64,000 nt of DNA from an uncultured virus (IMG/VR IMGVR_UViG_3300020048_000074). Lineage: Duplodnaviria > Heunggongvirae > Uroviricota > Caudoviricetes. The translations under genes were made by a program, and so were the position numbers. Below, piece after piece: positions 13,523 through 16,302 of the stretch. Below the pieces are notes generated by a model that was not told the origin of the DNA, did not search any database, and saw only the letters and a list, made by a program, of their open reading frames with translations. The stretch lies in IMG/VR virus record IMGVR_UViG_3300020048_000074, positions 1-64,000 of that record, one strand, 5' to 3'. Every line of letters starts with the position of its first letter. Within the stretch, counting starts at the first letter, position 1.

Positions 13523-16132
13523 CTACCACTTAATAGATTCCCGGATGTACTCAGGTATGAACTTCCTACACCTCTTGTAGTACCACGGGAATCCGCTATC
13601 TAAAATATAAGTTACCGCACGCTCTTTGCTGCTTCTCACCGATCGGCCAAGCGCTTGAATAAACATTACCGTGGTCATCCACCCGTACCACTCGGGATCA
13701 AGTTCCATCTTCCTTGCTACTACCTTATCACCTAAACTCGGATATGGTATCTTACAAAATATCTGAACCTTGCTCAGGTCGCCGCGCAAATCAAGACCTT
13801 CCCGTAAACCACTTGCTACTATGATTGACCCCGGCTTGTTGGTGTGCTCCTCCAACATCTCCTGCGGTGTATCGTAATCCTTGTTGAACGTGTAGCGTGG
13901 ATCATCAAGATACCGCTTCAAATAACTTGCTATCTTTTCTGAATGCGTTTGTATAATCCCTTTTCTGTCCGGATGCATCGCAGCAATCTCTTCAATGATT
14001 TCCACGATCGAAGGAAGCGTAGCGTCTATATCCTTGTACCCCATTTTCCCGGCATACTTTTTTACTATTGGTCGATTCTCAGCGGGAAAGGAACTCGGAA
14101 CGGCAACGTAATAAACTTCAGCGGGATTAAGCCCCACATCTTTACAGAACATTTCTTTGTCAAGAATAGTCGCGCTCATCATGAGGGAGCGTTCACCGTA
14201 TTCAAACAACCAACGAGAAGCGTAGTCGCCAACGTATACCGGCCTGAACATTACCGAGGGAGCATACCTCCCAGTTTCCGAATAATCGAAAACATATTCT
14301 GCCGGGTTATCGCTTCCGCGCTCCGCAAGATACCGTTTCATTCGATGCACTATTTGAGATAGCTCTTGCATCCGAAACAAGCCCTCTTTGCTCAAGCCGT
14401 CAACCTCGAACTGGGCTTCAAACTTCGCGTACTCTTCGCAGTAATCCGCATACGCTGATTTAACAAACGAATCGTACTCGGCTAAAGTATCCGCTTCAGG
14501 AACCGTGATACCACCCCGGCTGTTTATAGTAAAAGAAAGAAACTCAGAAAACTTGTTTGCAATGTTATGGCAATTGTGCACTACAACGCCATTAACCACG
14601 TAGGTATGCAAATCCTCTACTTCAATATCATAGACTGAACCTTCAGGACACAATTCTTCAAATCTGCCATCACTTCCTTGTTTGATAACCTCAACACTCT
14701 CCACCCTAGCAAACCCAGAACGATTTCTTTCCGATGATCCTGCTCTTTCCGAACTAAAGAGCCATGAGAACCACCGTCCACCTCTACGGCTATTTGATAC
14801 GTTCGATTCGCCACATCTATCTTGTAGTGCTTTGGGCAACGATACTCTTCCCGAAGTAACACGGAAGTTGGTACAATCACTTCGGTTTCCCATCCGAGAC
14901 TTTTTGACAACAGAATTTGAGCTTTGGTTAAGCCCCTCCCGTTTCCACCTCTCACAGGGGGCTGCCAACCCATCGTCCGTAAAGTAGCCGATGCCTTTGC
15001 GCGTGTCTCCGCTGACTTCATGGGATTGTTTCGTGTCATACGAATCGAGGACGCATTGCGAGCCTCCACAGAGACAGTTCGCCCCATCATAGCAACAGAC
15101 TTTGCCGATAGACCACATTTTCTGGAACAGTACACTACCCCATGTCTTTTGTAGTGTGATATTTTCCCTTGGCTGAGACACACAAAAGAAGTTCCACAAA
15201 AACTGCACGATGCTTCCAAATAGTGGTAAGCGGCTTTTTCGTTTGATATTGGCCCACGTCTTCCCATAACCATTATTGTACTCCATGTTTTGCACAATGT
15301 CCATACCAAGTTTTAATTTATTAGCTTCTACCCACCCAGAGGCAGTCAAAAATAGATGGTTGCCAGTGCACCTCACGATAGACTGGTTTCCAAAAGTAAC
15401 TTGATAAAGAGTGCTTGTACTTTTAACAAACTTATTCAAAACCTTTTTAAGCTTAAAAGCTTTATTACCAACATCATAAGCCCAAACCATATCCCCAACT
15501 TTAATGTCATGTATCAACGTGTTACCACGCTCACACATCACAGGAGTTGATCCAACAAAACACTCATCAATGATTATAAGCTTCCTACCTTGGAACCCGG
15601 CACCGAAAGAGTTCTGGTAATAAAAAGAATCAAAGTTATGCACGGTGACCACCGCGCTCAAAGCGCTACCCTTCGCCCTTCGATAAGGGCACCCATCGCA
15701 GGGCATTCGTTTCTTCAAACGACAAGGGCCATTCGCGCAGGTAGTGCCTACATCCCCCGCTAAACATTCGTAAGCGCCCCGGCCCTTCATAACGAACATA
15801 TCAGAAAACTCAGACTCGTATTGATCCTGAAGTATTTTCTGAGCAGTCAAAATATGAGCATTTCCAGATTGAAACGCAAGTGCACGCGCTATATGACTTT
15901 TACCGGACCCTGTAGGTGCATCCACCACGACATGCCGGTAACCTTTCTCGTAAGCTGCCTCGATCTCTTCTATGGTTTCTCGTTGGTAAGGTCGGTAGGA
16001 TTCCGCAACGAAGTAATCCGTAGCTCTTCCTGAAGTGCCAAATATGTTTGTCTCCCCACCAACAGGATTGATATCCTCTCCCGGAGCTGCCCCGATGTCT
16101 GTATCAGTAAATGGTGCTTCGCACATAAACAT
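13523..16132 (-). CDS. DinG/XPD-like SF2 helicase containing an intein
   Basis: APTGSGKS, Cys cluster, DE|CH motif II split by the intein, MSAT, EGLD, QALGRSVR. Confidence 0.92.
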   Translation of the reverse strand: MFMCEAPFTDTDIGAAPGEDINPVGGETNIFGTSGRATDYFVAESYRPYQRETIEEIEAAYEKGYRHVVVDAPTGSGKSHIARALAFQSGNAHILTAQKILQDQYESEFSDMFVMKGRGAYECLAGDVGTTCANGPCRLKKRMPCDGCPYRRAKGSALSAVVTVHNFDSFYYQNSFGAGFQGRKLIIIDECFVGSTPVMCERGNTLIHDIKVGDMVWAYDVGNKAFKLKKVLNKFVKSTSTLYQVTFGNQSIVRCTGNHLFLTASGWVEANKLKLGMDIVQNMEYNNGYGKTWANIKRKSRLPLFGSIVQFLWNFFCVSQPRENITLQKTWGSVLFQKMWSIGKVCCYDGANCLCGGSQCVLDSYDTKQSHEVSGDTRKGIGYFTDDGLAAPCERWKREGLNQSSNSVVKKSRMGNRSDCTNFRVTSGRVSLPKALQDRCGESNVSNSRRGGRWFSWLFSSERAGSSERNRSGFARVESVEVIKQGSDGRFEELCPEGSVYDIEVEDLHTYVVNGVVVHNCHNIANKFSEFLSFTINSRGGITVPEADTLAEYDSFVKSAYADYCEEYAKFEAQFEVDGLSKEGLFRMQELSQIVHRMKRYLAERGSDNPAEYVFDYSETGRYAPSVMFRPVYVGDYASRWLFEYGERSLMMSATILDKEMFCKDVGLNPAEVYYVAVPSSFPAENRPIVKKYAGKMGYKDIDATLPSIVEIIEEIAAMHPDRKGIIQTHSEKIASYLKRYLDDPRYTFNKDYDTPQEMLEEHTNKPGSIIVASGLREGLDLRGDLSKVQIFCKIPYPSLGDKVVARKMELDPEWYGWMTTVMFIQALGRSVRSSKERAVTYILDSGFPWYYKRCRKFIPEYIRESIKW
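14617..15273 (-). CDS. Vsr/DUF559-like endonuclease with Zn finger and NUMOD3-like repeats, in a shifted frame inside the intein
   Basis: CSFC..YCSRKC, NPMKSAETRAKASATL, IDVA..IAVEVDGGSH..QDHRKE..GWRVLRLSNKEV; start 15273 (GGAG SD) or 15267. Confidence 0.88.
   Translation of the reverse strand: MVMGRRGPISNEKAAYHYLEASCSFCGTSFVCLSQGKISHYKRHGVVYCSRKCGLSAKSVAMMGRTVSVEARNASSIRMTRNNPMKSAETRAKASATLRTMGWQPPVRGGNGRGLTKAQILLSKSLGWETEVIVPTSVLLREEYRCPKHYKIDVANRTYQIAVEVDGGSHGSLVRKEQDHRKEIVLGLLGWRVLRLSNKEVMADLKNCVLKVQSMILK
15275..15303 (-). promoter_or_regulatory. internal sigma70-type promoter for the nested endonuclease
   Basis: TGGACA-17 nt-TACAAT, 7 nt before ATG at 15267. Confidence 0.6.
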
Positions 16133-16302
16133 ACTCCATTCTCAAGAATAAGCCGTAACCCAGAATGCCTACGATCAACCACGTGATGGGCGGCCACACC
16201 CCATTCAGAGTTGCACCCGATCCATGAACACCGCCCATCGCTTCTCGCTATAACCCGCGCTTGAAAGTCAGCGTCACTCTCAGCGTATGTAAACTCAATC
16301 AC
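15970..16302 (-). CDS. small HNH-family nuclease (NinG-like)
   Basis: CSWIGC..AAHHVVDR..ENGVCLCAKHH. Confidence 0.75.
   Translation of the reverse strand: MIEFTYAESDADFQARVIARSDGRCSWIGCNSEWGVAAHHVVDRRHSGLRLILENGVCLCAKHHLLIQTSGQLRERISILLVGRQTYLALQEELRITSLRNPTDLTNEKP

Follow-up and report, generated by a model that had tools for sequence, protein, structure and literature searches.

A phage helicase intein with a predicted homing endonuclease gene nested in the +1 frame

The viral record IMGVR_UViG_3300020048_000074 (IMG/VR; Caudoviricetes) comprises 91,440 bases and is rated 95% complete. It is a myovirus-like phage genome of about 91 kb. The stretch analyzed here, called the window, consists of positions 1 to 64,000 of that record. 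Its gene content is of the tailed-phage type: it codes for a large terminase, a DNA polymerase, an exonuclease, a Holliday-junction resolvase, SbcC/SbcD, a UvsX-like recombinase, a DnaB-like helicase and a tail sheath protein. This report deals with another helicase gene, which is related to XPD, DinG and Rad3 and is interrupted by an intein, and with a second open reading frame (ORF) that lies inside the intein in the +1 frame. The features are collected in Table 1.

The helicase gene, its intein and the second reading frame

The helicase ORF is assigned to PHROG 2488 (DNA helicase, E 1.7e-91). Pfam places ResIII/DEAD in the N-terminal part, Helicase_C_2 in the C-terminal part and Intein_splicing between residues 206 and 520 (E 1.7e-13). 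A protein search with the C-extein returned 1937 proteins at E <= 1e-10. Most of the best 120 are 477-594 amino acids (aa) long and carry the source names Rad3-related or DinG helicase. Intein_splicing is present in 5 of these 120, so that the distribution of the helicase intein among them is sporadic. The exception in length is P0179, with 809 aa but without an intein match. The intein-less homologues P0132 (77-80% identity), P0133 and P0135, with about 537 aa each, read LIIIDE/CHNIASKF (the slash marks the intein site) and lack exactly residues 191-520 in the alignment. The intein is therefore placed at nucleotides (nt) 14573-15562, where it splits helicase motif II. In one aligned intein-less homologue, the sequence at this position is DEAH. 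A DNA search with the helicase region against GenBank phages gave no match. When the DNA of the intein-less P0132 allele was sought in IMG/VR, just distant helicases were found, and the homing site was therefore compared at the protein level only.

According to its motifs and its predicted fold, the intein is a class 1 intein with a HINT fold. Cys191 follows directly after DE, block B contains T66 and H69 (CTGNH), and the intein ends in ...VVVHN/CH. All of 47 aligned inteins share C1, T66, H69 and N330, and nearly all have H329. In the same alignment, the commonest residue accounts for a fraction of 0.44 in the N-terminal splicing part, 0.63 in the C-terminal part and 0.27 in the middle. An AlphaFold model based on the intein alignment shows the HINT halves with a predicted local distance difference test (pLDDT) score of 92-98, while approximately residues 100-280 reach only 43-63 and are almost devoid of secondary structure. 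The folded parts match mini-inteins in Foldseek, namely the splicing domain of Mtu RecA (template modeling (TM) score 0.88), Ssp DnaB and gp41-1. The intein model has 55 PDB matches at E <= 0.001, and those listed are inteins or other HINT-fold domains. The linker between the halves is rich in Ser, Gly and Arg (26, 21 and 18 of 209 residues). With C1, TxxH and HN/C all intact, the intein is predicted to splice, which would restore DE-CH.

The second ORF is offset by +1 from the helicase ((16132-15309) mod 3 = 1), and both frames are open over 693 nt. It begins at about intein residue 99, where the ordered N-terminal half ends, and finishes at about residue 315, having run about 35 codons into the ordered C-terminal half. 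At other loci, the corresponding stop codon is found 4-19 codons ahead of the intein end. The ORF matches DUF559 (Pfam, E 6.8e-10) and has 129 database homologues of similar length. An alignment of 28 endonucleases has 20 invariant columns, all 20 of which are kept by the window protein. They include four Cys (35, 38, 61, 65), GNG, K163, D165, E176, D178, S181, H182 and D191. A profile built from the endonuclease alignment matched the PDB entries 3hrl (a DUF559 protein, E 5e-9) and 3r3p (I-Bth0305I, E 7e-4). The AlphaFold model of the protein has a pLDDT of 86, with values below 50 only at residues 1-20 and 119-122. The top Foldseek match of the nuclease is the catalytic domain of I-Bth0305I (3r3p; probability 1.00, TM 0.61-0.68), and 3hrl and 1vsr (Vsr of E. 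coli) are among the next. I-Bth0305I belongs to the Vsr-like 'EDxHD' family of homing endonucleases, and E176, D178, H182 and D191 presumably have the catalytic roles. A conserved stretch, RM..NNPM...ETR, is helical in the model. It may resemble NUMOD3, a likeness for which Pfam offers no support. Judging from conserved residues and the model, the most likely domains of the protein are a zinc ribbon with four Cys, a helical region for DNA binding and a nuclease of the Vsr-like/EDxHD type (DUF559, I-Bth0305I-like).

The locus had first been described by a model that saw only the letters and a list of ORFs (the original prediction). Its intein at residues 191-520, splitting DE/CH, coincides with what the intein-less homologues lack. 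The well-formed zinc-finger/DUF559 endonuclease that it read in the shifted frame is corroborated by the DUF559 match, the four invariant Cys and the confident model, and its statement that both frames stay open for more than 650 nt is correct. The additional label NUMOD3 had to be dropped, as the ORF has no NUMOD3 among its Pfam matches at E <= 1. The middle of the intein had been called Ser/Arg/Cys-rich; this is accurate for Ser and Arg, to which Gly can be added, but Cys is not notably frequent.

Table 1. Features of the intein-containing helicase gene and of the nested ORF (window positions; L089 and L008 are related loci; CDS, coding sequence; SF2, superfamily 2)
Feature	Position	Strand	Basis or remark
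Helicase precursor gene, XPD/DinG/Rad3-like SF2 helicase with intein	13523..16132	(-)	single uninterrupted ORF, 869 aa
N-extein, residues 1-190, ending with motif II ...LIIIDE	15563..16132	(-)	alignment with P0132, P0133, P0135
Intein, residues 191-520, 330 aa, class 1 by motifs (Cys1, TxxH, terminal HN, +1 Cys)	14573..15562	(-)	absent from homologues of about 537 aa
N-terminal HINT half, intein residues 1-98	15269..15562	(-)	residues 1-90 with pLDDT 96-98, beta-rich; Foldseek: Ssp DnaB, Mtu RecA, gp41-1 inteins
Helicase-frame read-through linker, intein residues ~99-280	14723..15268	(-)	pLDDT 43-63, poorly conserved
C-terminal splicing half, intein residues 281-330 (...VYDIEVEDLHTYVVNGVVVHN)	14573..14722	(-)	pLDDT 92-97; HN/CH junction conserved across loci
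C-extein, residues 521-869, starting CHNIANKF, plus stop codon	13523..14572	(-)	alignment of extein homologues
Predicted +1-frame homing endonuclease ORF, 230 codons from TTG 15309, stop 14617-14619	14617..15309	(-)	DUF559, homologues, fold
Most likely endonuclease CDS, 216 aa (MGRRGPISNEKAAYHYLE...), from ATG 15267	14620..15267	(-)	ATG conserved in L089 and L008
GGAG, Shine-Dalgarno-like (candidate)	15281..15284	(-)	7 nt before ATG 15273, 13 nt before ATG 15267
TGGACA-17-TACAAT, promoter-like, 10/12 (candidate)	15275..15303	(-)	TGGACA 15303-15298, TACAAT 15280-15275; ends 7 nt before ATG 15267
Predicted dual folded coding over about 100 nt, endonuclease residues ~196-230 and intein residues 281-315	14620..14722	(-)	high pLDDT in both models

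Conservation of the layout and selection on the two frames

A tblastn search against GenBank phages matched 40 records, and seven of these were looked at (CP-T1, phi673, MR14 and the Vibrio phages 104E43.1, 1.088.O, 1.194.O and 159E43-1b). In all seven, the endonuclease match lies in the +1 frame inside an annotated helicase or hypothetical CDS, within an intein of the type DE/CF...HN/CHH. A scan of IMG/VR with a single protein gave no relative, but relatives were found with a profile. The best 80 of 280 such IMG/VR relatives and the 7 GenBank phage loci make up a set of 87, or 88 when the window is included. The helicase frame is open through the whole endonuclease match in 78 of the 88 loci, with host ORFs of 1.4-7.6 kb. 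There is no locus among the 88 in which the other sense frame is open, and none in which the endonuclease is in frame with the helicase. Among metagenome and genome matches longer than 130 residues, 28 of 31 are nested likewise. Taken together, 106 of 119 related loci have the +1 layout; they come from isolates, viromes and metagenome-assembled genomes and share 31-75% protein identity.

Both frames leave a signature in the codons. The synonymous codons of the endonuclease ORF were shuffled 2000 times, and stops in the helicase frame were counted. In the window, the helicase frame has no stop, compared to a mean of 11.9 in the shuffles, none of which left this frame open (0/2000). The third sense frame has 19 stops, with 18.2 expected. 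When the loci were clustered (<80% identity), the helicase frame was free of stops in all 56 clusters, while 2.5-15.2 stops were expected. A codon ending in T was encountered at none of the 3357 junctions where it would be prone to create a stop, compared to 2201 of the 9503 other junctions. In 52 of 53 cases, TAC encodes the Tyr of the invariant YK[IL]D motif and gives rise to 'LQ' in the helicase frame. In fractured and free-standing relatives (see below), the frame equivalent to that of the helicase contains 15-35 stops. The open helicase frame across the overlap is kept by selection.

The protein-level constraint lies on the endonuclease. In four close pairs of loci (L030/L034, L004/L007, L069/L077 and L005/L006), there are 14, 11 and 76 substitutions at endonuclease codon positions 1, 2 and 3. 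At the protein level, 23 of 721 residues differ for the endonuclease, compared to 83 of 717 for the helicase frame. For the same bases in the 56 clusters, the mean pairwise identity is 43% in the endonuclease frame versus 21% in the helicase frame. Purifying selection acts on the endonuclease frame throughout the family, and the linker encoded by the host frame is not so constrained.

The frame relation itself may be favored by the genetic code. The host frame equals the endonuclease frame minus one, and in this arrangement the code always permits a synonymous change at the third position just before a potential stop to abolish it. With the other frame, a Met codon followed by a codon starting with A gives an unavoidable TGA. 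This constraint may help to explain why the frame persists; common descent explains its uniformity equally well.

The host genes are diverse. Of 50 host ORFs scanned, 43 have ResIII and/or Helicase_C, two have Helicase_C_2 like the window (L008, L078), four belong to SNF2 and one is a large terminase (L081). The junction reads DE/CF[PV]AGT...VHN/CHH in nearly all loci. Because the HINT halves are homologous, the unit of intein and endonuclease probably arose once and moved between ATPase genes. The terminase case (L081, 2846-4924) carries the intein and the +1 endonuclease in a large terminase subunit (Terminase_3), with the junction HN/CEEAQ. A second intein is present elsewhere in the host helicase at L056, L058, L062, L032 and L028, three of which have an in-frame LAGLIDADG_3 domain.

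Nine IMG/VR loci are not nested. Seven of these are fractured helicases (L040, L048, L050, L057, L065, L067 and L087). Their order is an ORF for the N-terminal part that ends in the N-intein half, the endonuclease, and an ORF for the C-terminal part that starts inside the 3' end of the endonuclease; the relative frame is the same. The remaining two carry the endonuclease as a free-standing gene shortly upstream of a helicase gene. At L079 (3462-5599), a free-standing copy is located directly upstream of a helicase whose frame is interrupted exactly at motif II: one ORF ends with ...IIIDERTPRSSSDL, and the next reads ...NGHHAAAPTYKK. A quick, unrooted tree of the endonucleases leaves 31 of its 60 inner branches without support. 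Five fractured loci come together in a single clade (Shimodaira-Hasegawa-like approximate likelihood ratio test (SH-aLRT) 99), which groups, with weak support (92), with the window and L008. As the tree is unrooted, no direction of change is claimed.

Three further observations concern overlapping frames and their annotation. At two loci, the entire endonuclease match is additionally open in an antisense frame (L002, 2212-3237, 1026 nt; L053, 3384-4280, 897 nt). In GenBank, only the helicase is annotated for CP-T1 (gp10; L001, 1474-4455), phi673 (gp43; L002, 1864-4374) and MR14 (gp44; L003, 1945-4518), and intein and endonuclease are unannotated. In the window, a Cys/His-rich ORF of 110 aa (15970-16302, minus strand) is located between the SbcC-like gene and the helicase, and overlaps the 5' end of the latter by about 160 nt in a different frame. 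By eye it shows a CxxC...HH...CxxHH pattern, and it has no Pfam or PHROG match.

Predicted start and expression of the endonuclease

The start of the endonuclease is probably ATG 15267. This codon is conserved in L089, the closest relative (endonuclease 74% identical), and in L008, while ATG 15273 is conserved in neither. The database protein P0003 (75% identical) has 216 aa and begins with MGKRGPRPN, which corresponds to MGRRGPISN in the window protein. In keeping with the later start, residues 1-20 of the 230-aa reading are those with a pLDDT below 50 at its N-terminus. The original prediction had also named ATG 15273, with GGAG 7 nt before it; this start is not sustained by the comparison. 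The spacings that it gave for both start-region motifs are exact. L089 has GAGG at the same place as GGAG in the window, and L008 has AGGAG 6 nt ahead of its ATG. RNA folding around the start is not more stable than in shuffled sequences (z = +1.03), and no regulatory hairpin is proposed for this reason.

Transcription might start inside the helicase gene. In the original prediction, TGGACA-17-TACAAT, a site of the sigma-70 type, was read as an internal promoter that would suit a leaderless endonuclease mRNA from ATG 15267. The site exists and ranks first among the promoter-like sites in 3 kb, and its -10 element ends at a short distance from the conserved ATG. L089, as the only close relative with a similar site, retains TTGACG-17-TACACT-7-ATG despite changes in both hexamers, and Dassa et al. 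2009 (PMC2677866) describe endonuclease genes of this sort as bringing their own control elements. However, the number of promoter-like sites is at chance level (4, with 4.5 expected from shuffling). The same bases also code for the last part of the conserved N-terminal splicing half, and this alone could account for their conservation. L008 has no such site but carries AGGAG ahead of its ATG. In addition, the host may use another type of promoter. Public sequencing runs listed with this stretch comprise two DNA runs and no RNA run. We consider the leaderless promoter possible but doubtful, with the site and its counterpart in L089 as candidates.

Overall, the interpretation that we favor is a helicase intein at DE/CH that houses a separate, out-of-frame endonuclease gene, with the in-frame middle being mere read-through. 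We hold this to be very likely because conservation, codon statistics and structure prediction agree. Several observations weigh against it. The layout is not universal: nine of the 88 loci are non-nested, one further locus is cut by the contig end, and three of the 31 metagenome/genome matches deviate. The uniform frame may reflect a single origin, given that the HINT halves are homologous across loci, which then would not be independent inventions. The Foldseek E-values of the nuclease are modest (5.5e-3 at best). Concerning initiation, GGAG in the window is 13 nt away from the conserved ATG, the promoter-like site is of a kind expected by chance, and a Shine-Dalgarno-like motif of at least 4 nt before the first ATG was found, by a crude call, in 20 of the 56 clusters, with none in 31.

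One alternative is that the ORF in the window is a relic, an unexpressed or inactive leftover in an intein that survives as what is in effect a mini-intein. Decay after fixation is common for homing endonuclease genes. The ORF is, however, of full length and retains every invariant column, including the four Cys and E176, D178, H182 and D191. Its product folds confidently in the AlphaFold model, the family is under purifying selection in this frame, and intein-less alleles are common among close relatives, so that targets exist. We regard a relic as improbable.

Ribosomes translating the helicase could also shift by +1 inside the intein, which would yield a fusion of N-extein, N-intein and endonuclease. 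Both genes are on the same strand and the same mRNA, and a good Shine-Dalgarno motif is often missing, both of which speak for such a mechanism. Nevertheless, we judge a frameshift product to be very unlikely, because 33 of the 56 clusters have a stop in the endonuclease frame at most six codons upstream of the first ATG, which leaves almost no room for a shift site. An in-frame ATG is found near the opening of the ORF in all 56 clusters, the fractured relatives carry the same endonuclease as a separate gene, and there is no significant RNA structure around the start.

Two compensating sequencing or assembly indels that pushed an in-frame endonuclease domain out of frame, a scenario already raised in the original prediction and to be kept in mind for a viral contig of low depth from a metagenome (word depth about 3-6), can practically be dismissed: the +1 layout recurs in the 106 related loci with no in-frame version among the 119, an artefact would not produce the avoidance of helicase-frame stops, and 11 matching pieces from the Logan contigs of two public DNA runs show 0 mismatches and 0 gaps, although this last point is weakened by the fact that both runs belong to one study, which may include the source sample, and leave bases 14619-14641 uncovered.

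Proposed homing cycle and comparison with known systems

For splicing, for the expression and start site of the endonuclease, and for the activity and target of the nuclease, we infer the following cycle. A mobile intein would have invaded the gene of an XPD/DinG-like helicase at motif II (DE/CH). In the helicase frame, two class 1 HINT halves would be joined by a disordered linker of about 180 residues. Apart from being stop-free, this linker may be without a function, and its openness would let the ribosome reach the C-terminal splicing half and the C-extein. The intein would then excise itself and restore DE-CH. The DNA of the linker would at the same time be the CDS of a homing endonuclease of the free-standing type with 216 aa in the +1 frame. 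Translation of the endonuclease most likely starts at ATG 15267 independently of the helicase, with either the helicase mRNA or the transcript of an internal promoter as its template. During co-infection, the endonuclease most likely cuts intein-less helicase alleles near the DE/CH codons, and repair would then copy in the whole unit of intein and endonuclease. The intein-less allele at DE/CH is proposed as the target by analogy to the general action of homing endonucleases and from the sporadic distribution of the intein.

We tentatively go one step further, well aware that this view is speculative. The +1-nested state might be a stable, selected way of life for this endonuclease family. HINT halves and endonuclease would hop as one unit among unrelated ATPase genes (ResIII/Helicase_C, XPD-like and SNF2 helicases, terminase), and the mere appearance of stops in the linker frame would turn the unit into a fractured gene with a split intein. 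The genetic code may dictate the frame relation, and an internal leaderless promoter would uncouple the timing of the endonuclease from helicase expression.

The family is of wider interest for several reasons. It is invisible in current annotation, since gene callers and GenBank list the helicase only, as in the phages CP-T1, phi673 and MR14 mentioned above. Inteins of this kind are likely misread as decaying inteins or mini-inteins. The family also links three states, namely an endonuclease that stands free beside the gene it targets, one that is nested within a contiguous intein, and a fractured gene with a split intein. This link bears on the origin of split inteins and of endonuclease-bearing inteins. 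Finally, it is a clean natural case of long dual coding on the same strand, with about 650 nt in two frames, about 100 nt predicted to be folded in both, and a measurable codon signature.

By structure, the nuclease domain is best matched by I-Bth0305I (PDB 3r3p), an enzyme encoded by a group I intron, with which it shares the family invariants E, D, H and D. The window protein differs in that it has an N-terminal four-Cys zinc ribbon and resides in an intein. An intein with a DUF559 nuclease in a helicase is also found in UvrD-type helicases of superfamily 1 (P0124-P0130). In those, however, DUF559 is in the intein frame, only the nuclease half matches (42-65% of the query) and the helicase superfamily is a different one. 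In total, in-frame DUF559 inteins were encountered in eight longer proteins; P0124-P0130 have about 800-830 aa, except that P0129 has 1995 aa.

In ShiLan-type insertions of phage methylase genes (PMC11855218), a nested out-of-frame endonuclease is likewise present, and the insertion is open in the host frame; those insertions are not inteins, and the nuclease is of the HNH type. The fractured genes described by Dassa et al. 2009 (PMC2677866) are closer. They have the same Vsr-like endonuclease family and the same order of N-intein, endonuclease and C-intein, and the C-intein part likewise begins within the 3' end of the endonuclease gene. By contrast, the helicase frame of the window stays open and the intein is contiguous, so that splicing in cis is predicted, with no need for a split intein.

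Inteins whose endonuclease gene lies out of frame or antisense are already on record, reportedly in Gorbalenya (1998), which the two following preprints cite. Gosselin, Arsenault and Gogarten (10.1101/2025.01.02.630785) report antisense LAGLIDADG, antisense VSR-like and frame-3 endonuclease-VII-like genes, with DNA polymerase, minor capsid protein, terminase and thymidylate synthase as hosts. Phillips, DeSimone and Gogarten (10.64898/2026.09.14.751524) report a +2-frame LAGLIDADG gene in cyanobacterial dnaX. For such non-canonical inteins, it has been proposed that a free-standing endonuclease gene invaded a mini-intein. A literature search did not turn up a Vsr-like endonuclease in the sense-strand +1 frame of a helicase motif-II intein; the supplements of the preprints, which were outside the search, may list cases. 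The kind of layout is already in print, and the family of the window is a further case of a known kind. As in the published non-canonical inteins, the intein is contiguous, the middle encoded by the host frame is disordered, and the overlapping ORF is well folded and under purifying selection. In contrast to them, the Vsr-like endonuclease of the window is encoded on the sense strand in the +1 frame and at helicase motif II. The authors of both preprints call the layout rare, whereas in the family of the window the nested state is the rule.

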